From assembly GCA_965205215.1 (NCBI GenBank), contig OZ242041.1, positions 192,001 to 256,000 of the forward strand: 64,000 bases of DNA, given 5' to 3'. Shown here piece by piece: positions 36,255-50,416 of the stretch. The stretch's first letter is position 1. Each line of letters starts with the position of its first letter. A program made the position numbers and the translations under genes. Source of the DNA: Nitrosopumilus sp. (lineage in GTDB: Archaea; Thermoproteota; Nitrososphaeria; Nitrososphaerales; Nitrosopumilaceae). Under the pieces are notes generated by a model, which did no database searches, had not been told where the DNA came from, and saw only the letters and a program-made list of their open reading frames with translations.

Positions 36255-38978
36255 TCAACCCGACGTGCAGCCGCTGTACCCGCACTCTATGCAGATGCAG
36301 CACCCCTCTACAAACACGAGCCCGTTCTTGCAGGTGGGACAGAGCTGCTCCTCGGGTATGTCCCCGTGTCCGGGCGCCTGCTGGGCGGAGTCTTGGTCGG
36401 ATCCAGACGCAACGATCTCCTGATCGTGCGGCTTTATCGCGAGCGCCGCGTCGATCTGTCCCGATATGTACCGGTTGGTTATATTGGAGCGCACAAAGTC
36501 CATCACCCACCGGCTCGGCCTCACCTCAAAGTTCTTTTCCGCATTCTCGCTTGTCATGTGCAGCACCTGCTTTTGCCTCGAGCCGTCCCTGTACACGGTG
36601 ATTCCCTTGAGCCCCATCTCGTGCGCAAGCAGGTAGGCGGCCTTTACGTCATCGGCGGTGACGTCGTACGGCATGTTTATCGTCTTTGCGATCGCGTTGC
36701 CGATCCAGTTCTGCCACACGGACTGAGCCATCAGGTGGTCGGCCCAGTGTATGTCCATCGCAGTGACAAACACGTCCTGCATCCACTGCGGAATCTCCGG
36801 AATTCCGCGCAGAGACCCGTAATTGTCGGCAATCTTCTCTATAATCTCGTCAGAGTACAGTCCCTCCTCCATGAGGGCCCGCTTTACAATCTCGTTGGTG
36901 TAAAAGAACTTGCCCACCGTCACCCGCTTCTCAAAGACCAGCGCGAACGCGGGCTCCATGCCGTTTGAGCAGTTTGCAATCATCGACAGCGTGCCGGTGG
37001 GGGCCACCGTGGTGGTCAGCACGTTGCGTATGCCGTACTGCCTGATGTTCGATACGAGCGCGTCCCACTCGCAGGAGTGACGGCCCGTGGGCATCTCATA
37101 ATATGCGGCGACGGGTATCCGGCCCTCCGGATACTCGGACTTTGAGCAGAGCGGGAACTCGCCCCTTGACCTTGCAAGCGCCACGCTCTCGTCCATCGAA
37201 TAGTACGTGAGGGCCTCCGACAGCCTGGACTGCATCTCGTATCCCTCCTGCGAGTTGTACGGTATGCGCAGCTTGTAAAGCAGGTCGGCCACGCCCATCA
37301 CGCCGAGCCCGATGCGCCTAGACTCCTTGGAGGCCTCGTCGATCTCCGGCACCGGGTACAGGTTCACGTCAATCACGTTGTCAAGGAAGCGGGTGGTCTT
37401 CCGGATCACCTCCTCGTACCGCTGCCAGTCAAACTCGTACGAGCCGTCGGCCTGCTTTTTGACCAAGTTGGCCAGGTTTATCGATCCCAGGTTGCACGAC
37501 TCGTACGGGTACAGGCTCTGCTCGCCGCACGGGTTCGTCGCCCGCAGGGGCCCCTGCCGCGCCTTTGCAAACACGTTGTACTTGTTTATCTGGTCAAAGA
37601 ATATCAGCCCCGGCTCGGCGCTCCTCCACGCCGACATGGCTATCATATCTATGAGGTTGTGCGCCCTCACCTCCTTTACGGGCTTTTTGGTCTTGGGGCT
37701 GCGCAGCATGTAGGCGCCGCCGGTCCCGCCCTCCTCCGAGTCGTTCACCAGCGCCTCCCAAAAGTCCTCCCATATCCCGACTGACACGTTGAAGTTTTCT
37801 AGCACGCCAGGCTCTGTCTTGTTTGTGATGAACTTCTCAACGTCCGGATGCCACACCTCCATTATGCCCATGTTGGCCCCGCGGCGCTTGCCGCCCTGCT
37901 TTACCACCTCCGTTACGGTGTTTATTATGTTCATAAAGGACACGGGGCCGGACGCCACGCCGGACGTAGACGCCACTATGTCGCCCTCCTGGCGCAGGTC
38001 CGAGTAGTTTATGCCCACGCCCCCGCCGGACTTGAATATCATGGCGGCGTCCGACGTCGACTTCATTATGTGCTCCATGTCGTCGTCCATCCCAAGTACA
38101 AAGCACGCCGACAGCTGCCCGAGCCGGCCGCCTGCGTTCATCATGGTGGGCGAGTTTGGCAGAAAGTCCTGCGACACCATCAGGTTGTAGTACTCTTGGA
38201 TCTTGTCCGCGTACGCGTCAAGCCTCTTGCCGGCCAGCATAGTCAGCAGCTCCTTGAAGCTGGCCTTCATCTGGTTCTTCCTTGCCAGGTGCACGTAGTG
38301 GTTTATGAGAGCCCGAAAGTGCCACCTGTTGAGATGGAACTGCCCGATCCTGAACTTGCAGTCAAAGGCGTCCAGCTTGTCCAGGTACGACTCGGCCTCT
38401 GCCACATCCTGGTGCGAGCTGCCCGCCCTGTCAAACAGCTCCGAGTCATATAGCATGTCCCCGAGCCCGACCAGGATGGCCACCCGCTCGAACATCTGCG
38501 TGGGCGTCTCGACAATCTCGTTTTTGTTGTTGCGAAACAGATAGCGCGACGCCAGCACCCTCAGGCAGCTTATGTCGAAATCCTTTGAGACGGGATCAAG
38601 GGTCTTTAGGTTCAGCACCTTCATCTTCTCGTTGCGCACCTTGCGCCTCTCGTGCCGATACACGATGTACGCCTTTGCGATCTCGCTGTATCCCTTGTCG
38701 ATCAGGGTCGACTCGACCATGTCCTGTATGTCCTCCACGGAGGGCGGCATGGCGTTGGTAAAGCCCTGCTCTGCCAGCTTTGTGACGACGTGCCCGGACA
38801 GGGCGGCGGCAAGATCGCGGTCCGGCTTCGAGGTCGCGGCGAGCGCCATGTATATGGCGTTCGCGATCTTGTTCTGGTCAAAGTCCGTGATCTCCCCGTT
38901 GCGCTTGCGTATGACACTGATACCGGTACCCACCTGTGAATTATCCAAATTGCTACTCCCCGAAAGGGTTGAAAACAT
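36255..38978 (-). CDS. nrdJ: Class II (adenosylcobalamin-dependent) ribonucleotide reductase with N-terminal ATP cone
   Basis: ATP cone (RKRNG...FD..KI), PNSPT.MNAG, SACFV, QGG.RRGANM, TNPCGEQ, CNLGS, APTGT, KG.T.YRDGS, C-terminal CxxC/CxxC. Start may be TTG 38948. Confidence 0.96.
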   Translation of the reverse strand: MFSTLSGSSNLDNSQVGTGISVIRKRNGEITDFDQNKIANAIYMALAATSKPDRDLAAALSGHVVTKLAEQGFTNAMPPSVEDIQDMVESTLIDKGYSEIAKAYIVYRHERRKVRNEKMKVLNLKTLDPVSKDFDISCLRVLASRYLFRNNKNEIVETPTQMFERVAILVGLGDMLYDSELFDRAGSSHQDVAEAESYLDKLDAFDCKFRIGQFHLNRWHFRALINHYVHLARKNQMKASFKELLTMLAGKRLDAYADKIQEYYNLMVSQDFLPNSPTMMNAGGRLGQLSACFVLGMDDDMEHIMKSTSDAAMIFKSGGGVGINYSDLRQEGDIVASTSGVASGPVSFMNIINTVTEVVKQGGKRRGANMGIMEVWHPDVEKFITNKTEPGVLENFNVSVGIWEDFWEALVNDSEEGGTGGAYMLRSPKTKKPVKEVRAHNLIDMIAMSAWRSAEPGLIFFDQINKYNVFAKARQGPLRATNPCGEQSLYPYESCNLGSINLANLVKKQADGSYEFDWQRYEEVIRKTTRFLDNVIDVNLYPVPEIDEASKESRRIGLGVMGVADLLYKLRIPYNSQEGYEMQSRLSEALTYYSMDESVALARSRGEFPLCSKSEYPEGRIPVAAYYEMPTGRHSCEWDALVSNIRQYGIRNVLTTTVAPTGTLSMIANCSNGMEPAFALVFEKRVTVGKFFYTNEIVKRALMEEGLYSDEIIEKIADNYGSLRGIPEIPQWMQDVFVTAMDIHWADHLMAQSVWQNWIGNAIAKTINMPYDVTADDVKAAYLLAHEMGLKGITVYRDGSRQKQVLHMTSENAEKNFEVRPSRWVMDFVRSNITNRYISGQIDAALAIKPHDQEIVASGSDQDSAQQAPGHGDIPEEQLCPTCKNGLVFVEGCCICIECGYSGCTSG

Positions 38979-39106
38979 ATGCTATATTAATTGTCTAGGC
39001 AAAAATCCCCACAATGTTTGGCCAAAAATATCGCGCCAACCGCGGATCGCGCCATGCCGGACTGCGAATATCATAATATGGACATGTGAATGCAGGGCCA
39101 GGGGGC

Positions 39107-39125
39107 GGTTTGTATATAACAAACC
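39107..39125. promoter_or_regulatory. Inverted repeat enclosing a TATA-like core
   Basis: GGTTTGT-ATATA-ACAAACC upstream of nrdJ. Confidence 0.45.
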
Positions 39126-39151
39126 CGGGCAGGATCGGGCGGGCCGGACCG

Positions 39152-39174
39152 CGTGTTGCGATAATCGCAACACG
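39152..39174. promoter_or_regulatory. Perfect 11-1-11 palindrome, candidate operator
   Basis: CGTGTTGCGAT-A-ATCGCAACACG between the NrdD-like gene and nrdJ. Confidence 0.5.
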
Positions 39175-39272
39175 GCACGCAAGCGGCACTGTATATTGGC
39201 TGGCCGCCTGTCTTTCAGGCAGAATGAACCATGGCGTGCACGGGAGAACGGGCGGCGTCATACCAAGCGGCG

Positions 39273-41402
39273 TCATACCGGGACGCGGCGCGGCGTCTGG
39301 CACTTGGGGCATTTTGAGTCAAACGGCCTGTCCTTGAAGCCGCACTCGGCGCACACGATAACCTCCTTTGAGGGGGAGAACGTCGGAACTAGGGCGGCCA
39401 TCTTCTCGATCGCCTTCCGTACCACGTCGGGATCCGTCTCCGTCTCCGGTATGCGCAGCACGACCTGGAGCCCCGCGTTGAGGGAGCGGCTCATCCTGTT
39501 GGACAGCGTAATGGGGGGGCTCTTGTTCGTGTACTTTTCAATGTCAGATACCTCAAACACCAGCCCTTGCGTGTAGGGTTTCGTCTGGCCCGGGCCCGTG
39601 ACATGCTTGCCGTACTTTTTGCCGTCGAGCCTGGCAAAGCGCTCGCCGGCCTCCGGCGCGTCCGCGATGCATATGGTCACCCGCTCGCCGGCCTCCCTTG
39701 CCCCGTTTGTCCCGGCATCCACCGCATGCGTGATTATCTTCTGGACTGTCTCCCTGCCCTTGCGGTTGTACTCGAACCCCAGGCCCTCAAAGACCGCCTC
39801 GCGGAGGCCCACCAGGTTTATGGTAAGCGACGCATAGCCGTACTGCATGTACTGCGTGTTTCTTGCAATGAGCGGGTTGAGGCCGCGGCGCGTGTTCTCA
39901 AACAGCTCCTTTTTGCGCGTTATTATGGCGTCCACCACGGGCTTTAGCAGTAGCACCAGCCTGGCCATAAAGTACTCGGCGTCGCCCCTGCCCACCTCGT
40001 ATGCCAGTCCCGCCAGATTGACGGACACCGACTGGAGCGCCATCGACATCTTGGAGTCGGTCTTGTTGAGGCTGCCGCCTGAGACGCCCCTGCTTGAGAC
40101 CTGCTGCGACTTTGTGAGCAGTACGCGTCCTCCGGCGATTACGATGTCGGCCAGGCGGCCGGAGACGGACTCTATACTGCCCTTGTCATAGCCTATGACG
40201 AGTCCTATGCGGGGCCTGGGAGTCAGCCTCACGTATCTAGAATAGGCGTTTATGATGCAGTCTACCAGCCGGGCATCGTCGTGCCCCATGTTGAGCCGTA
40301 TGGACGTTATGTTGCCGCCCTCCTTGGTGTGGGCGGGCACGACGGAGGAGGCGGCAAGCATCCACAGCAGTCCCGCCTCCATCTCGGCATCGCCTGCATC
40401 GGGGCACCTCTTTGCAAGCAGCCGGGGCAGGCCCGACACGACGACCTCCTCGGATGCCTCCCGTGATAGCAGGTGCAGCATGATGCATACAGAGGCCATT
40501 GCATCTGACGGCCCGCCAGACCTCGGAATGCGGGATGCCGACGCGTGCTTGCCGCCGATGTTCATGCCGCCGTCAAGAAGATCCTTTATGTTGACAAATA
40601 TCACGTCGGGCAGGGCAAACCACGTGCCGACATTTGATATGTGGATGGTGCCTGCCATGTGCCTGTCGGCGACGTCCTTCTGCAGCGAGCCGAACATGGT
40701 ATTCTCAACGAAGACGTTGCGGCCGGCCCTGCTGATCAGGCTCTCCATGCCGCCGTCCACCTCGTCCAGATTGTATAGCATCTGCTGCACGTCGTGCAGC
40801 GGCATGCCGAGGCGGACCAGCTTGTTACGGTACTCTTCGTTGTTTGTCTCCAACAAGACGGAGTTCACCATGTCCCTGATCAGAGAGCCCGTGATGTACG
40901 ATATCTCGTACTTGTGGATCTTGTTCTCCACCTCTTTTGTTATCTTTTCCGCCAGCTCATGGGGCATGTTTCCCTCCTTGACCAGCGACTGGACAATGCG
41001 GTGCTTTTTGAACTCGTCAATGGACGCAGACGACGAGCGCACCTGCAGTTTTCCGCTCTCCATGAACGCATTCTCCTCTATCTTTCCGGCAAGCTCCAGT
41101 ACGAGCTTGCCCTGGTTTGTAATGTTGTAACGGCGCTCGGACTTGTTGCGCTCTACGAGTGCCAGGGCCGTCAAGTCGCGCAAATGGTATGCAAACTTGC
41201 CGCTCTCCTTTTTGGATCCAAACCCCGCGAGGGCCTTTAGGTCGGTGTACGAGGTAGAGCCCTTCGAGTACAGCACCTTTAGTATTTCGAGCCGGCTTAT
41301 GTTGGACATAGACCGGAATATCGAGCTCATGCGTTTTTCAGTGGCCTTGGTGTGGTTTTTTTTCACGGGCCGGGACGGCGTAACTGTTTTTTTTAACTCC
41401 AT
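39273..41402 (-). CDS. ArsR-like wHTH + ATP cone + degenerate class III RNR (NrdD-like) fusion protein
   Basis: N-terminal SRLEILK.L......Y.DLK...G.FAYHL..L (wHTH); FKKHRIVQSL.KE...A..I...VE (ATP cone); NrdD-like GTIHISN, SVSVNL..LAYE, NLVGL.EAV, RFARLD.KKYG, PYTQG, C..CG...CPKC; no C-terminal R..GY radical loop. Confidence 0.85.
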   Translation of the reverse strand: MELKKTVTPSRPVKKNHTKATEKRMSSIFRSMSNISRLEILKVLYSKGSTSYTDLKALAGFGSKKESGKFAYHLRDLTALALVERNKSERRYNITNQGKLVLELAGKIEENAFMESGKLQVRSSSASIDEFKKHRIVQSLVKEGNMPHELAEKITKEVENKIHKYEISYITGSLIRDMVNSVLLETNNEEYRNKLVRLGMPLHDVQQMLYNLDEVDGGMESLISRAGRNVFVENTMFGSLQKDVADRHMAGTIHISNVGTWFALPDVIFVNIKDLLDGGMNIGGKHASASRIPRSGGPSDAMASVCIMLHLLSREASEEVVVSGLPRLLAKRCPDAGDAEMEAGLLWMLAASSVVPAHTKEGGNITSIRLNMGHDDARLVDCIINAYSRYVRLTPRPRIGLVIGYDKGSIESVSGRLADIVIAGGRVLLTKSQQVSSRGVSGGSLNKTDSKMSMALQSVSVNLAGLAYEVGRGDAEYFMARLVLLLKPVVDAIITRKKELFENTRRGLNPLIARNTQYMQYGYASLTINLVGLREAVFEGLGFEYNRKGRETVQKIITHAVDAGTNGAREAGERVTICIADAPEAGERFARLDGKKYGKHVTGPGQTKPYTQGLVFEVSDIEKYTNKSPPITLSNRMSRSLNAGLQVVLRIPETETDPDVVRKAIEKMAALVPTFSPSKEVIVCAECGFKDRPFDSKCPKCQTPRRVPV

Positions 41403-41687
41403 CCAGAATATGCTCCAAACCGGAGTAAATAAGAATTATGACGTGCCGCATGCCAAACAGTGGATGATCACATGCCAGAGCTGCAGATCTTTTGCGCCGT
41501 TGTCGAAGAGCCCGCGGGCGGCAGGCCGGACTGACGGCCGTTTAAGAACTGACCGCTGCGGGCACGGATGGCAGGCTTCAGGCAGGAGTGCTGTTTTCCT
41601 CCAGACCGCACGTTGCGCCCAGGACAGTTCTTGCATGGGGCAGGCCGTCGTCCTGCATGTCGCGCCCGCCGCCGTTCCTGGCGCGTG

Positions 41688-41849
41688 TCACTTTTCCCTG
41701 GCGTCGAGCTCAAACTCGGAAGACGACAGCTTTTCGCCGCATGCGGGGCACTTGCCGTTGTTCGAGGCCATCGCGTCTTTGAGGGACTTTAGCATCTTCA
41801 TGTTTGTGATCTTTTCGCCGCACTTGCCGCATACCACATTCACAGACAT
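41688..41849 (-). CDS. 53-aa CxxC...CxxC zinc-ribbon protein
   Basis: Own translation MSVNVVCGKCGEKITNMKMLKSLKDAMASNNGKCPACGEKLSSSEFELDAREK; TTTTATTT box about 25 bp upstream; not in the ORF track. Confidence 0.8.
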   Translation of the reverse strand: MSVNVVCGKCGEKITNMKMLKSLKDAMASNNGKCPACGEKLSSSEFELDAREK

Positions 41850-41901
41850 GATACACCGGTCGGAGGGCGCAAAATAAAATTGTTGTCGCGCGGCGGGCCG
41901 T

Positions 41902-42279
41902 TCAGGAAGCGCCGTCGTCCTTTGAGATTACTATGCCGCGCTCATCAAAGCCGGTAATCTTGGCCCTGGTACCGACGGGCAGATCAGCCGGAGTCGCAAT
42001 GTCCGCCATGAACCCCGATATGCGGAGCTCGGAATCGTCGAGGCGCAGCACGACAAACGCGTACGGGGTATACCCTTCGAATCCCGCGGGGGGGACGGTA
42101 ATTATCGTGTACGTAGCAACGCTGCCGCGCCCTTCCAGCACGACGGGCTCAAAGCCCTTTGCCCCACAGCCCTGGCAAAAGTAGACCGTGCTCAGGTGCA
42201 GGCGCCCGCAAGCGGTGCACTTGTGCGTAAACACCTTGCCCTCTCTGGCGTAATTTATCATCTGTTCCTTTGCAGACAT
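41902..42279 (-). CDS. DUF35 Zn-ribbon/OB-fold thiolase partner
   Basis: CTACG...FCQGCG, G.V.TYT.I...P.GF...PY; directly downstream of the thiolase. Confidence 0.9.
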   Translation of the reverse strand: MSAKEQMINYAREGKVFTHKCTACGRLHLSTVYFCQGCGAKGFEPVVLEGRGSVATYTIITVPPAGFEGYTPYAFVVLRLDDSELRISGFMADIATPADLPVGTRAKITGFDERGIVISKDDGAS

Positions 42280-46017: not shown

Positions 46018-48426
46018 TCAGGGCCGGGTCTTGGCACGGGAGCTCAGTCGGGCCCGTGCCAGCCGCGCGCACCCCACGGCCGCAAACGCTGGAATGCCCA
46101 CGTACATTCCAATGTTCAGGAGTATTACCGACATGCCGTACCCCAGCATCTCCGCTTCCGTGTCGATGCCCGCATGCTCCAACAGCGAGAGTGACGACAG
46201 CATTGGCGTCAGCAGAACCTTGGTTGCCTCCCTGATTGCCGGGTTCTCCCTCTGAATGTCTGCCACAGACGGGGAGAACGTATAGTATATGGAATTGAAG
46301 CCAGACATGAATGCGGTTCCGGATGAGGTTGCAAGTACGGTGCTGTCCCTCAGCTCCCTGAGCTGCTGGACTTGGGGCGCAAGCTCGGAACCAAATGCGG
46401 CAGTCGCGATAAGGCAGCCGCCGCCTTCGTCTGCGGGAATCTCGACGGCATCATCCATCATCGTGACGTGTTTCTGCCTCATCGTCTCGTGGTCGGCCCG
46501 CATCATGTCGTGGTCGTCACTCATTGCCTTGTGATCCTTCACCATAGTCTCGTGCAGGCCCATCATTTCATCGTGCATCTGCGCCATCATCATCATCATC
46601 CCGTCGTCACCCATGCCCGTACCGTGCCTGTCCATTACCTGCATGTGCTGCTGCATGACCGTCTCGTGGGCCTCGACCATCTCTCCATGCCCTGATATCT
46701 TCGCCTCATGGTCCTTGATCATCCTCATGTGCGCATCAATGTCCATGGGATCGCTGTCGTCGCTCATCATGGCCTCGTGCTCCTTCATCATGGCCTCGTG
46801 CTCCTTCATCATGGCCTCGTGCTCCTTCATCATGGTCTCCATCTCGTTGTTCATGGCGGCCATCTCGTCTTGTTCCGTGTCGCCGCCCATCATCATGCCG
46901 CCGTGGTCCATGCTGTCGCCGTCGCCGTCGCCGCCCATCATCATGCCGCCGTGGTCCATGCTGTCGCCGTCGCCGTCGCCGCCCATCATCATGCCGCCGT
47001 GGTCCATGCTAGACATGTCGTGCGGCTCGCTGATCACAAAGGAGATCCTAACAGACGAGGAGGTTCCCTCTATGTTTGCCACCTCGAGTGTTGCAATACC
47101 CGTCTCATCAAACGTGGCCGTAATGCGGTCACCCCCCTCGGGCGCCTCGCGTCCGGCCTCGGACAGCACGACATCGTCGCCTAGTGACAGTCTCATGTCG
47201 TACGTGGCCCCCGGAATATGGTCGTCAGAGCCCTCATGACGGATCACAAGTGACAGCGTCAGCTCGTTTCCGGGATGCAGCATGCCCGCAGGCTCAGCCG
47301 ACACGCGCACGTCATAGTTCCCGTCGGCGCCCCCAGTCGACCTCGTTATTACCGCGTCCCCCGCCTCAATTGACGCGTCGCCGCTTATCTGGTGCTGGCG
47401 CTCGGCGCCGGCCCTTATCTCAAACACCATCCTGTCAAGATACCCGGGTTCCAGATTTTGCATCATCTCAAGCAGCTTGCCAGAGGACAACAGGTAATGC
47501 ACCACCGTCTCATCACTGCCGGAGCGGTCCACCGTGCCGAAATAGTCCATTCCGTTTACTGCAAGCAGTATGTCATGGTTCTCAAAGAGATCAATTGATT
47601 TCGGGATGAAGAACTCGGCGTGGATGAACGATGCCGCCTCTATGTACTCCTCGGTCCAGACAAACGGCATCTCTACTGAGACACTCCTGGCCTGTTCGTC
47701 GTATGAAAATTTGTCAACCCTGTCAAAATAAGTGGCAAATGTGATATCCGACGGCATGCCGTCAATCTCGACTGTAAACGGAACATACTGGCCCATGCTG
47801 AACATCACCTCGAAGGTGGAATCCTCGCCAGCGGACACGGGCTGCGAGTCAATTGACTTGACTGTCGCATGTACGTAGACTATGCCTCCCTCCAGAAATA
47901 CAGGGGCCTTCAACGTGGCCGGGGAGTCGTCGGATGCCAACCAAGATCCCTCCTTGGCGCTCTCGCCGGATACCTCGACGGGTGCATCCGTGGAAGGTTG
48001 GATCAGGATACTCAGACTTTCACCAGGCGAGTACGCGTCAAGGGATGCAAGCGAGGCGTCCCTGTCACTGCCATCGACAAACGTCAGGCTGTACTCTACG
48101 CCGGACACTGAGATGGCAGGTTCCGCGTCCACATTCACCAAGGATATGGTCATTGCGACATGCTCCTCGTCACCGCTCAATATTGCAGGGTTGGTCGTGA
48201 TCTTGAGCATGTGATAGTCGCCGTTTATCAGCAAGAGTTCACTGTCAGCTGAACCGGAACTTCCCGCATAAGCCTCCTCAAACATGCCGTCATACGCAAA
48301 GAGTACGGATGCCGACACAAGCGTCGCCACAAGCATGAACGACAGTGCAGTATGTCCAGACCCATGCCGTTGCAACACAGTACCATATGGAACGGACGCA
48401 GTATAACTGTCAATCGCAGCGCTCAT
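46018..48426 (-). CDS. Secreted CFI-box-CTERM protein with Met/His-rich repeat region
   Basis: Signal-like hydrophobic segment, beta-rich domains, Met/His tracts, GGGCLIATAAFGSELAPQVQQLRELRD, C-terminal TM plus basic tail; start uncertain. Confidence 0.88.
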   Translation of the reverse strand: MSAAIDSYTASVPYGTVLQRHGSGHTALSFMLVATLVSASVLFAYDGMFEEAYAGSSGSADSELLLINGDYHMLKITTNPAILSGDEEHVAMTISLVNVDAEPAISVSGVEYSLTFVDGSDRDASLASLDAYSPGESLSILIQPSTDAPVEVSGESAKEGSWLASDDSPATLKAPVFLEGGIVYVHATVKSIDSQPVSAGEDSTFEVMFSMGQYVPFTVEIDGMPSDITFATYFDRVDKFSYDEQARSVSVEMPFVWTEEYIEAASFIHAEFFIPKSIDLFENHDILLAVNGMDYFGTVDRSGSDETVVHYLLSSGKLLEMMQNLEPGYLDRMVFEIRAGAERQHQISGDASIEAGDAVITRSTGGADGNYDVRVSAEPAGMLHPGNELTLSLVIRHEGSDDHIPGATYDMRLSLGDDVVLSEAGREAPEGGDRITATFDETGIATLEVANIEGTSSSVRISFVISEPHDMSSMDHGGMMMGGDGDGDSMDHGGMMMGGDGDGDSMDHGGMMMGGDTEQDEMAAMNNEMETMMKEHEAMMKEHEAMMKEHEAMMSDDSDPMDIDAHMRMIKDHEAKISGHGEMVEAHETVMQQHMQVMDRHGTGMGDDGMMMMMAQMHDEMMGLHETMVKDHKAMSDDHDMMRADHETMRQKHVTMMDDAVEIPADEGGGCLIATAAFGSELAPQVQQLRELRDSTVLATSSGTAFMSGFNSIYYTFSPSVADIQRENPAIREATKVLLTPMLSSLSLLEHAGIDTEAEMLGYGMSVILLNIGMYVGIPAFAAVGCARLARARLSSRAKTRP
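46765..46835. repeat. 21-bp tandem repeat x3 encoding (MMKEHEA)n
   Basis: Unit CATCATGGCCTCGTGCTCCTT. Confidence 0.9.
46879..47010. repeat. 48-bp tandem repeat x2.75 encoding SMDHGGMMMGGDGDGD
   Basis: Read directly from the sequence. Confidence 0.9.
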
Positions 48427-48442
48427 ACCAACCAAGCCTCCA

Positions 48443-50416
48443 TTATGACGGGATCTCCACGAATATCTCAGAACCGTCGTCGCCCGCAGAGGTGCCCGTG
48501 TCCAGCACCAGCGCCCGTGTAACGATATCCAGTGAGTCGGCAGTCGTATACGGATCTGGGAGTGTAAGATCCTCATATTCGATGTATATGGTGTCGCCGT
48601 CCGACACGCGCAGCCTGTCCTGACTGTCGGAGCGATCCGTAGTGGTCATGATGAACTCACCCTCCAGATAGTTGTAGTGGTGGGGGTGATCATATCCCTC
48701 GAGGTAGTCAGGCACGTTTCCCTCCTCAAACGAGTCGTGTCTGGGCACGACTTCCTTGATTACTGCCTCCGGAGCCACTTGGAATGAAAAGTTGACCTGC
48801 TGTGATGCATCATCAAAGATGTCCTTTATTACGATACGGACGGATCCTCGCTCGTCAAACCGGATTGGCTCGAGGCCCTGTCCGTCCGCAAATGAGCGGT
48901 CGGCACGGGTCTCGACAAGCTCGCCGTTGAGGTATACCTCCATCGTATATGTCAGGCCCATCTCGTGCACGTCGGTCATACCGTCGTGCGCCATGAGGTT
49001 GACTACATAGTCCTGGCCGACTCCGAGCAGCCCCCCAGGCTCCCACCAAAAGTAGACCTTCCACCTGCCGTCTTCCGTATATTTCGTAAGCGAGCTTGCG
49101 GCAGGCTCCGTAAGGTGTCTGTCACTGAATCCGTCTTGGATGGTGGCGTGCTCCATAAATGGAGTAAATTGTACACCCACATGAATTCCGGTAAGATCAG
49201 TATCAGAATATACACGGACATAATTGGTGTGGAATTCGGCGTGATGTATCCACAGATCCTTGTCGCGCAAGAAGAACGTGACCTTTTCATTGACATCATA
49301 TACCGGTTTGTGGAATTGAACCTCTCCAATCTCCCATTCGTATGTCGCAGATTTTTGTATGATCGTATCCTCGTTTGGTTCCCAGGATACGGTAATCCGT
49401 CCGTCTTGCGGTTCTGTTGCTATCAGAACGGCGCGGTCATGAGATGAGATCTCGGCGCCGCTGTTGTGCTGGGGCGCGGTCATGTCGGGCGCGGTCATGC
49501 CGCCGTGGCCTCCGCCGTGCTGGGGCGCGGTCATGTCGGGCGCGGTCATGCCGCCGTGGCCTCCGCCGTGCTGGGGCGCGGTCATGTCGGGCGCGGTCAT
49601 GCCGCCGTGGCCTCCGCCGTGCTGGGGCGCGGTCATGTCGGGCGCGGTCATGCCGCCGTGGCCTCCGCCGTGCTGGGGCGCGGTCATGTCGGGCGCGGTC
49701 ATGCCGCCGTGGCCTCCGCCGTGCTGGGGCGCGGTCATGTCGGGCGCGGTCATGCCGCCGTGGCCTCCGCCGTGCTGGGGCGCGGTCATGTCGGGCGCGG
49801 TCATGCCGCCGTGGCCTCCGCCGTGCTGGGGCGCGGTCATGTCGGGCGCGGTCATGCCGCCGTGGCCTCCGCCGTGCTGGGGCGCGGTCATGCCGCCGTG
49901 GCCGCCTGAATGTCCCCCGCCATGGGCGGGAGGCCCGTTTTCGGTGGAACCGGTCACGCCATGGGTGGATATACTAGTATGAAACGAATCGTGTACGAGA
50001 TAGTTAGGCGCTCCGGTCATCTTGACAACACCCATAAATATTCCAGTATCAAATCCGGTCTCCGAAAAGTCCACCTCCGTGACTCTCTGCGGGCCGGTAT
50101 ACACCTTGATTGGGTTCTCCGGCGTGCCGATAACGTCTATCTTGTCAGAGTCGTCGTTCCAGCCCGGCGCGTATATCAGGACGTTTATACGATCCGTCCA
50201 TCCTAGCCCCTCATACCTTTCGTTACAGTCCTGCAGGGTGAACGCCTCGTTTGTACAAAATTTCATTATAATTCCAGTAGTCTTTTTTACAATCGTAAAA
50301 CCTGTCTCAGCTGATGCAGACTGCAACAGCGTCGGGGCGATCGCAGCAGTGCCTATAATCAATATTGCCGCAACAGTAGCGCCGGCCAGAACTGTTTTGT
50401 CCGGCATACCTACCAT
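48443..50416 (-). CDS. Secreted S-layer-protein-related protein with His/Met tandem repeats
   Basis: Signal peptide; WTD.I.V.I.AP..N.DSD.ID.IG, ETG.DTGIF.G, W.IGEVQ, V.SD.D..GI, RLRVSDGDTI..EYED.TLPDPYTTAD.LDI resemble the remembered Nitrosopumilus S-layer protein C-terminal domains. Confidence 0.75.
   Translation of the reverse strand: MVGMPDKTVLAGATVAAILIIGTAAIAPTLLQSASAETGFTIVKKTTGIIMKFCTNEAFTLQDCNERYEGLGWTDRINVLIYAPGWNDDSDKIDVIGTPENPIKVYTGPQRVTEVDFSETGFDTGIFMGVVKMTGAPNYLVHDSFHTSISTHGVTGSTENGPPAHGGGHSGGHGGMTAPQHGGGHGGMTAPDMTAPQHGGGHGGMTAPDMTAPQHGGGHGGMTAPDMTAPQHGGGHGGMTAPDMTAPQHGGGHGGMTAPDMTAPQHGGGHGGMTAPDMTAPQHGGGHGGMTAPDMTAPQHGGGHGGMTAPDMTAPQHNSGAEISSHDRAVLIATEPQDGRITVSWEPNEDTIIQKSATYEWEIGEVQFHKPVYDVNEKVTFFLRDKDLWIHHAEFHTNYVRVYSDTDLTGIHVGVQFTPFMEHATIQDGFSDRHLTEPAASSLTKYTEDGRWKVYFWWEPGGLLGVGQDYVVNLMAHDGMTDVHEMGLTYTMEVYLNGELVETRADRSFADGQGLEPIRFDERGSVRIVIKDIFDDASQQVNFSFQVAPEAVIKEVVPRHDSFEEGNVPDYLEGYDHPHHYNYLEGEFIMTTTDRSDSQDRLRVSDGDTIYIEYEDLTLPDPYTTADSLDIVTRALVLDTGTSAGDDGSEIFVEIPS
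49467..49874. repeat. 51-bp perfect tandem repeat x8 encoding APQHGGGHGGMTAPDMT
   Basis: Eight identical units with no spacers, plus a partial unit extending to about 49925. Confidence 0.95.

Follow-up and report, generated by a model that had tools for sequence, protein, structure and literature searches.

Four described systems come closest to the protein reported here: NrdR, NrdD, the ArsR/SmtB winged-helix repressors and GlyXL. NrdR, the RNR-specific repressor of bacteria (RNR, ribonucleotide reductase), joins a Zn ribbon to an ATP-cone, as stated in the accessible parts of two papers (PMC9110341, PMC12176259). GlyXL is, in the portion of PMC13759103 that is available, a homolog of the class III RNR NrdD that lacks the radical residues, works aerobically in glycine synthesis and pairs with an ACT-domain protein. 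The present gene lies on a 64,000-nt stretch of Nitrosopumilus sp. DNA (GCA_965205215.1, contig OZ242041.1, positions 192,001 to 256,000), hereafter the window, within which all coordinates are counted. The gene (39273–41402, minus strand) is an intact open reading frame (ORF) of 709 aa, in which an ArsR/SmtB-like winged helix-turn-helix (wHTH) is followed by an ATP-cone and an NrdD-like barrel. Its product is most likely a one-component transcription regulator that arose from a duplicated class III RNR, and belongs to a large archaeal family that is apparently undescribed. To our knowledge, the control of RNR expression in archaea is largely unknown.

With NrdR, this candidate regulator shares an ATP-cone joined to a DNA-binding module, a position beside RNR genes and a presumed logic in which the nucleotide state of the cone would set RNR transcription. 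It differs in having an ArsR-like wHTH instead of the Zn ribbon, a cone without the canonical Lys-Arg (K-R) pair, and about 500 attached residues of dead NrdD barrel, whereas NrdR (TIGR00244) is only about 150 aa long. With NrdD, it shares the fold, the N-terminal ATP-cone, the dimer-interface helices, the Asn of the NLPR motif and the C-terminal Zn ribbon, and the cones of adjacent archaeal true NrdDs also open with VRTS. However, the glycyl-radical Gly is missing, as are the thiyl and beta-A Cys and the activase NrdG; the candidate regulator also falls far under the NrdD equivalog cut-off and carries an extra N-terminal wHTH.

ArsR/SmtB proteins act as dimers on inverted repeats. Residues 27–103 of the candidate regulator match these repressors by profile, but its sensor would be the fused cone and barrel rather than a metal site in the wHTH dimer, and its dimerization is predicted to involve the barrel. 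GlyXL resembles it in being an NrdD homolog that has lost the radical residues, a parallel that comes from its description and not from sequence; it differs in being an enzyme with an ACT-domain partner, and neither a wHTH nor an ATP-cone is mentioned for it in the available portion of PMC13759103. On that description, GlyXL is the nearest precedent for a non-radical NrdD homolog, but as an enzyme and not a regulator. AmzR, a recently described archaeal family of ligand-binding transcription factors, was also considered and set aside, being an unrelated basic-zipper protein in the available part of its description. A full-text literature search, which covered neither subscription journals nor supplementary tables, returned no HTH-fused or catalytically dead archaeal NrdD and no paper using the name DUF7347. 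The terms helix-turn-helix, winged, HTH, DNA-binding and transcription are all absent from the searchable text of a survey of RNR insertions and extensions (PMC9669993), as are the names Nitrosopumilus, Cenarchaeum and Thaumarchaeota from that of PMC3019208.

Domain architecture and fold

Two alignments of the family were used, a broad set of 111 sequences (A1) and a close subfamily of 25 sequences (A2). The N-terminal wHTH (residues 27–103; 41094–41324, minus strand) was recognized by Pfam as DUF7347 (E = 2.4e-8). This domain was found in 40 of 41 diverse family members and HTH_5 in 26 of them; the NCBIfam model HTH_metalloreg (NF033788) matched the 709-aa protein at 1.2e-3, which is under its cut-off. 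When the A1 profile was compared with PDB, its N-terminus matched the ArsR/SmtB repressors NolR (1.4e-5), NmtR, HlyU, ArsR, SmtB and CadC (1.4e-5 to 1e-2). The probable recognition helix (..SGKFAYHLR..) holds the family-invariant residues G68, F70 and H73. The second domain is a divergent ATP-cone (residues 120–191; 40830–41045, minus strand; Pfam PF03477, E = 4.3e-7, 30.8 bits versus a cut-off of 25.8), which was present in all 41 diverse members.

The remainder of the protein is a ten-stranded alpha/beta barrel of the NrdD type (residues ~201–680; 39363–40802, minus strand), as judged by the PDB profile search, an AlphaFold2 model, Foldseek and a homodimer prediction. Pfam NRDD matched residues 424–703, corresponding to profile positions 263–529 of 562 (E = 4.5e-22), and the A1 profile covered the whole barrel of all five solved NrdDs (9d3x, 4.8e-47; 8p23, 8.6e-45; 4coi, 4e-42; 4u3e, 4.3e-42; 1h78, 7.9e-35). 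The landmarks GxIHI, NLPR.A.E, GL.EA, R..LD..KYG, Y(S/T) and CxxC..CxxC appeared in this order in the A1-NrdD alignment. The AlphaFold2 model of the 709-aa protein, built on A1, had a predicted local distance difference test (pLDDT) score of 92.6 and a predicted template modeling (pTM) score of 0.87. In a Foldseek search against PDB with this model, ranks 1–36 were all class III RNRs (TM score no higher than 0.66 on the target), followed by class I enzymes. The agreement between profile, model and structure search indicates that the NrdD landmarks reflect real homology and not chance. Single-sequence PDB searches with the whole protein or the cone alone gave chance-level matches only (family B DNA polymerases and others), and a protein atlas search returned NRDD clusters alone. 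The C-terminal Zn ribbon is retained (C684, C687, C698 and C701; 39300–39353, minus strand), and all four Cys are invariant in A2. In the 2.10-Mb single-contig genome, this protein is the only NRDD-like sequence. An earlier interpretation made from the DNA letters and their translations (the sequence-only reading) had proposed the same series of wHTH, ATP-cone, NrdD barrel with ordered landmarks and Zn ribbon, and Pfam, the A1 profile and the AlphaFold2 model bear it out.

Loss of radical chemistry

The protein ends (...CPKCQTPRRVPV) 8 residues past the fourth Cys of the Zn ribbon, with its stop codon at 39273–39275. Continuing in frame gives RRLV and another stop; thus, no glycyl loop is concealed by a sequencing error or read-through. 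The remnant of the finger loop (residues 433–445, QQVSSRGVSGGSL; 40068–40106, minus strand) has no Cys where NrdD has MGCR or MCCR, the class III finger-loop motifs given in the accessible text of PMC9669993, which also reports the beta-A Cys in 92.6% of sequences. Residues 425–470, the stretch containing the finger loop, are entirely free of Cys. The residue that replaces the thiyl Cys varies with the alignment: it is V440, beside the invariant G439, in A2 and G443 in the catalytic-site alignment described below. Both the absent Cys, in a finger loop read as SSRGV, and the stop right after the Zn ribbon had been pointed out in the sequence-only reading, whose SSRGV names the right stretch.

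To place these losses in the family, we aligned 41 members (the protein of the window and 40 orthologs from 40 genomes outside its taxonomic family) with five true NrdDs encoded adjacent to some of them. The finger-loop Cys was present in one of 41 members versus all five true NrdDs, which read C-C-R; the residues flanking the lost Cys were often retained (Gly in 29 and Arg in 26 of the 41). The glycyl-radical Gly was found in three members versus all five true NrdDs, and the tail was deleted in nine members, including the copy in the window. No member had the beta-A Cys (versus 5/5 true NrdDs), the corresponding A1 column consisting of I, V, L or F. Cys and Gly did not occur together in any of the 41 members, none of which was matched by Pfam Gly_radical. 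With the NrdD equivalog model TIGR02487, the 709-aa protein scored 62.7 bits (cut-off, 326.35); a less decayed member (L100) reached 304.2 bits, still under the cut-off, while the true NrdD next to it scored 520.5. The genomes thus display a graded series, from an active nrdD next door, through loss of Gly or Cys, to deletion of the tail.

Activase profiles stayed under their cut-offs in the genome of the window: the best score was 33.1 bits for NrdG (TIGR02491, cut-off 126.1) and 36.9 bits for TIGR02495, for which none of 61 family genomes exceeded 131.15 (best, 57.6). By these scores, there is no cognate NrdG in the genome, and the immediate neighbors of the gene are a small Zn-ribbon ORF and nrdJ, in line with the earlier remark that no activase is adjacent. 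Since the glycyl Gly, thiyl Cys, beta-A Cys and activase are all missing, nucleotide reduction by the NrdD mechanism is impossible, and on this residue-level evidence the protein is not an RNR. Structure prediction and alignment to NrdD, the check proposed along with the first interpretation, confirm both the fold and the absence of the Cys and Gly radical sites, and the catalytic residues or cognate NrdG that would have contradicted it were not found in these in silico searches.

Conservation of the wHTH and ATP-cone

Within A2, mean pairwise identity was highest in the wHTH (0.66) and cone (0.59), lower in the helical region 201–285 (0.38) and lowest in the barrel (0.29) and C-terminus (0.27); in A1, it was 0.50 for the cone, 0.38 for the wHTH and 0.21 for the barrel. 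Judged by identity, constraint on the protein is strongest in the wHTH and cone. The invariant residues cluster accordingly: in addition to those of the recognition helix, they include R122, F131, I136, E143, R176, R192 and R197 of the cone and D246 and G251 at the beginning of the barrel.

The cone opens with VRSS in the window and VRTS in the family, with Arg122 invariant, where canonical cones have K-R. An hhalign comparison of the family cone with the NrdJ cone gave 93% probability and placed VRTS under I-R-K-R-N-G. An aromatic/basic cluster (Y191, R192 and R197) is present family-wide on the last helix of the cone, residues 191–197 (40812–40832) lying just past the Pfam match. For comparison, the nucleotide contacts of Prevotella copri NrdD in the available part of PMC11226230 are Lys7, Arg8, Tyr83, Arg87 and Arg91. 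The VRTS-type cone was also found in two neighboring true NrdDs; thus, the same type of cone occurs in apparently competent enzymes. With its K-R pair replaced, the divergent cone is a plausible, putative ligand-binding site.

Predicted dimer

Two copies of the barrel (residues 195–690, A1) were predicted to pair through helices 195–238 and 282–315, forming an NrdD-like interface. The homodimer score was 0.87, compared with 0.00 for the best of three controls; the runs had 94% or more of their contacts in common, with a partner pLDDT of 88 or higher. In calibration, the mark was reached by 20 of 30 solved same-chain pairs and one of 23 solved single chains, figures that are approximate because a custom alignment was used. 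As NrdD dimers have already been solved, this result expresses likeness to the NrdD dimer and is not proof that this copy pairs. The predicted dimer would fit a dimeric wHTH regulator acting on inverted repeats.

Linkage to ribonucleotide reductase genes

The adenosylcobalamin-dependent class II RNR gene nrdJ (36255–38978, minus strand) is located 294 nt downstream of the candidate regulator gene on the same strand. Its product has a canonical ATP-cone and scored 734.6 bits with TIGR02504 (cut-off, 400). It contains the sole class I/II RNR barrel in the genome (a single PF02867 match) and is the sole other RNR besides the NRDD-like ORF; it is the presumed target of the candidate regulator. In Nitrosopumilaceae, nrdJ was the next gene downstream on the same strand, 183–626 nt away, in 73 of 80 named loci. 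Six of the other seven loci end 236–561 nt past the gene, and one (L018) has nrdJ approximately 5 kb upstream on the opposite strand. The nrdJ adjacency noted in the window is therefore part of a conserved arrangement; an absence of such linkage, which would have spoken against the original proposal, was not observed.

In other families, an RNR gene was found directly downstream on the same strand in nine of 40 loci, being nrdJ in three (all in family f2) and a true nrdD in six. Four of these six nrdD genes were checked and have QCC(R/A) and R(I/V)TGY; one of them is an NrdD equivalog by its 520.5 bits. The family thus adjoins RNR genes of two mechanistically distinct classes, and no other observation speaks more strongly for its role in ribonucleotide reduction. 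A separate feature of NrdJ is a Cys-rich tail at its C-terminus (36255–36330; ...CPTCKNGLVFVEGCCICIECGYSGC...).

Candidate operators and promoter regions

The spacer between the candidate regulator gene and nrdJ (38979–39272, minus strand) is a candidate operator region. We compared 74 such spacers, including that of the window, with 78 regions upstream of the regulator gene. Conserved blocks, seen in AT-rich relatives and present in 45–58 of the 74 spacers, keep fixed distances from nrdJ. Three were counted individually: CGATCATCG in 53 of 74, about -110 to -140 from nrdJ; a palindrome with 6-1-6 spacing like TATGAAnTTCATA in 51, about -80 to -90; and GTyAA-N5-7-TTGA in 45, about -60 to -70. 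All three were absent from the 78 regulator-upstream regions. The perfect palindrome occurs 0–2 times per closed genome and, where coordinates were compared, one copy was within this spacer in three of five genomes. An Rfam search of 38700–42000 gave no RNA family at E <= 1, indicating that the spacer has no riboswitch.

A TATA-like TTAATATA is present at 38983–38990, only 5–12 nt upstream of the annotated nrdJ ATG. The true nrdJ start may be an in-frame GTG 15 codons downstream, giving a leaderless mRNA; nrdJ homologs align from residue 4–11 onward. Archaeal repressors usually overlap the TFB recognition element (BRE)/TATA or the start site, whereas activators bind upstream. Because the blocks are 60–140 nt upstream of nrdJ, beyond the TATA box, an activator or a looping or oligomerizing repressor would fit better than a TATA-occluding repressor; on these motif positions, the regulator may activate or repress.

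The region upstream of the candidate regulator gene (41403–41687, minus strand) contains a conserved promoter-like CGTCATAATTCTTATTTACTCC (41422–41443) and GATC boxes at 41486–41489 and 41466–41469. In relatives (L008–L084), arrays of AAAnTGATCwAAA, typically with 3–7 GATC per 300 nt, are located upstream of the regulator gene and followed by a highly conserved AGTCAyAAGTCTTATTTAC. GATC density was 16.0 and 17.2 per kb in the two flanking regions (17.2 upstream of the regulator), an approximately fivefold enrichment over the 3.2 per kb of the remaining non-ORF DNA at these loci. Elsewhere, the closed genome of a relative, G001 (C1:449794–451886), has six TGATCWAAA boxes in approximately 2 kb, four of them as direct TGATCTAAA repeats 100–170 nt apart; this cluster may mark a further target region or an origin of replication.

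Distribution and naming of the family

A protein database search detected 2965 relatives at E <= 0.001, and a 50%-identity library contained 906 representatives. The best 120 of the 2965 were 48–98% identical to the 709-aa protein, and the named ones among these 120 were from Nitrosopumilus or related archaea. Longer forms of 740–800 aa were present in Bathyarchaeia and a 568-aa form in Aigarchaeota. When the wHTH and cone module (the first 285 residues) was searched at E <= 1e-10 in 301 sampled genomes of the phylum, it was found in 204 of them, representing 84 of 122 genera; these included all 43 sampled genomes of the family of the window besides G000, whereas several other families had it in no sampled genome. 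By this search, the family extends beyond ammonia oxidizers across much of the phylum. With a distribution that takes in the abundant marine ammonia oxidizers, it offers a concrete, testable candidate RNR regulator, together with a defined promoter fragment and defined candidate ligands.

Database names of the relatives include "anaerobic ribonucleoside-triphosphate reductase", "ribonucleoside-triphosphate reductase (formate)" and "helix-turn-helix domain-containing protein", so that the suspected mis-annotation as an RNR does occur. If the proposed function is true, many entries for anaerobic ribonucleoside-triphosphate reductase in aerobic archaea would be mis-annotations, which can mislead metabolic reconstructions, for example by implying anaerobic DNA synthesis in ammonia oxidizers.

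Contigs from two sponge metatranscriptome runs, belonging to two studies, cover parts of nrdJ and the candidate regulator gene with 95–99% likeness; their ends and strand are not given, and they are not proof of transcription. Sequencing runs with near-identical DNA include sponge metagenome libraries. The window has approximately 60% G+C versus approximately 35% in most loci of relatives, a high G+C content being common only to L005–L007 (96–98% protein identity). In many AT-rich relatives (L008–L084), translating the DNA just 5' of the aligned start would give an acidic stretch rich in D and E (e.g., MKMSDEELELDIDDD...). The protein of the window begins with a basic tail, and the choice of start codon (697 versus 715–757 aa) decides whether this tail belongs to the protein.

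Proposed function and alternatives

Taken with its gene context, the protein is probably an NrdD-derived, nucleotide-sensing transcription regulator of RNR genes, whose binding to DNA and ligand we infer. To the extent that computation can judge, this supports the sequence-only reading of a pseudoenzyme that would sense nucleotide pools and control the B12-dependent RNR. The protein would dimerize via the NrdD-type helical interface, bringing two wHTH domains into one particle, and the dimer would bind inverted repeats in the promoter region of the adjacent RNR gene; in Nitrosopumilaceae, TATGAAnTTCATA and similar elements ahead of nrdJ are candidate sites. An occupied ATP-cone may alter the conformation or oligomeric state and tune RNR transcription to the pool of (deoxy)nucleoside triphosphates ((d)NTPs), possibly with a contribution to sensing from the relic pockets for effector and substrate in the barrel. 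The likely ancestral pair was regulator-nrdD; aerobic ammonia oxidizers would have lost nrdD and nrdG and retained the regulator, now located before nrdJ. If true, this would be a clear case of a catalytic subunit of a radical enzyme recycled whole into a transcription factor.

A more far-reaching version is conceivable, although we find it doubtful. The dead barrel would have been retained as the sensor itself, still binding dNTP effectors at the specificity site of the dimer interface and NTPs in its relic active site, with the reading of ATP/dATP left to the cone. RNR transcription would be set by a protein that perceives the nucleotide pool in nearly the way an RNR does. The protein would then be the main regulator of RNR and dNTPs across much of the TACK archaea, the abundant marine ammonia oxidizers among them, an anaerobic inheritance re-wired from nrdD to nrdJ.

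Several observations weigh against a regulator of RNR genes. Outside Nitrosopumilaceae, no adjacent RNR was found in 31 of 40 loci, several of the 40 being truncated at a contig end. In five of the genomes lacking the adjacency, the RNRs are encoded elsewhere, and regulation there would need to act in trans. In the alignment of cones, the canonical phosphate-binding K-R is opposite T-S (S-S in the window), the invariant Arg being one position earlier, and the candidate regulator's cone retrieves no solved cone by single-sequence search. The palindrome, even within one mismatch, is missing from the locus in two of five closed genomes, and the motifs are degenerate in the G+C-rich lineage of the window (TATGATATTCGCA at 39063–39075). 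Two other candidate elements were rejected. GATC boxes do not serve as a regulon marker: a single closed genome contained 179 matches to TGATCWAAA, compared with 102 to the reversed control, and the motif is not locus-specific. GCGATCATCG, likewise not locus-specific, was absent from the nrd spacer in all five closed genomes searched, with one copy approximately 320 nt upstream of the regulator in G001 and 16 copies in G036.

Canonical NrdR also occurs in the phylum, which bears in addition on the earlier description of the protein as an archaeal analogue of NrdR. TIGR00244 had no match in the genome of the window or among the NCBIfam matches of the 709-aa protein. Among the 301 sampled genomes, NrdR was above cut-off in 16, all in family f12, and all 16 also hold the wHTH-cone-NrdD-like protein. 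In one of them (G077, C46:5966–8493), an NrdR of 154 bits is located approximately 380 nt upstream of a true nrdD (655 bits) on the same strand, and the wHTH-cone-NrdD-like protein is encoded elsewhere, beside pyrB (L088). The two regulators are thus not mutually exclusive. The protein has the ATP-cone and the RNR adjacency in common with NrdR, but being an analogue may not mean that it substitutes for NrdR everywhere.

Some of these points would also suit a nucleotide-sensing DNA-binding regulator whose main targets are not RNR genes, such as pyrimidine biosynthesis, replication or a wider nucleotide regulon, with the nrd adjacency being inherited synteny. Besides the many diverse loci without an adjacent RNR, the coexistence with NrdR in f12 and the occurrence elsewhere in a closed genome of GATC-box arrays like those at the locus, this is favored by genes for aspartate carbamoyltransferase: of the 40 diverse loci, 20 have pyrB and/or pyrI (TIGR00670, 387 bits; Pfam PyrI) in the vicinity, frequently right at the 3' end of the regulator gene. 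A carbamoyltransferase beside L091, L103 and L123 is ornithine carbamoyltransferase and was excluded from this count, and 12 of the 40 loci have none of the RNR or pyr neighbors. However, pyrB and pyrI are mostly convergent with the regulator gene and hence do not have a promoter in common with it. Loci that contain nrdD (L099, L100, L109 and L115) are arranged as regulator, nrdD, pyrB, pyrI, and we therefore read the pyr adjacency as a probable remnant of an nrdD-containing arrangement after nrdD moved or was lost. As RNR genes of either class are directly downstream on the same strand both in Nitrosopumilaceae and in other families, a regulator mainly devoted to other targets seems unlikely.

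We also consider it quite unlikely that the barrel is still a non-radical enzyme like GlyXL, to which wHTH and cone were added to make a bifunctional enzyme-regulator. GlyXL itself is a precedent, in the available portion of PMC13759103; the barrel fold is retained with high model confidence, the NLPR Asn is present in 39 of 41 members, and R588, D593 and Y610 are invariant in A2. Nevertheless, the barrel is far less conserved than the wHTH and cone (0.29 versus 0.59–0.66), NLPR has decayed to NLAG in the lineage of the window, the tail or Zn ribbon was lost in several lineages, and no GlyXS-like ACT-domain partner was found among the flanking genes.

Action at the protein level, in which the protein binds NrdJ or NrdD or buffers nucleotides, for example as a poison subunit heterodimerizing via the NrdD interface instead of acting on DNA, appears very unlikely. 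It would be compatible with the predicted retention of that interface and with the six of 40 loci in which a true nrdD adjoins the gene; but Nitrosopumilaceae have no NrdD partner, and a purely protein-protein role leaves the wHTH, the most conserved domain, unexplained. Finally, a decaying relic of an anaerobic RNR without present function is scarcely credible: it would account for the lost catalytic residues and the further decay in the lineage of the window (NLAG; NRDD score 78.9 bits versus 176–253 bits in other lineages), but not for intact full-length ORFs across the 204 genomes and 84 genera, the 2965 database relatives, the strong conservation of wHTH and cone or, as weak evidence, the metatranscriptome contigs of two studies that cover parts of the gene.

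Other genes in the window

A 53-aa ORF with four Cys (CxxC...CxxC) in a Zn-ribbon arrangement is encoded directly upstream of the candidate regulator gene (41688–41849, minus strand). It was present in 77 of 80 Nitrosopumilaceae loci, with 73–100% identity among the rows listed, whereas the 40 loci of other families gave no match to it. It scored above cut-off with no Pfam family. By analogy with NrdR, whose Zn ribbon binds DNA, this small protein could conceivably be a separate Zn-ribbon partner of the candidate regulator. An 852-aa ORF (46018–48576, minus strand) combines long repeats rich in Met, His and Asp (three copies of DHGGMMMGGDGDGDSM, and repeated MKEHEAMM) with a hydrophobic segment at its C-terminus, and might be a metal-binding surface protein.

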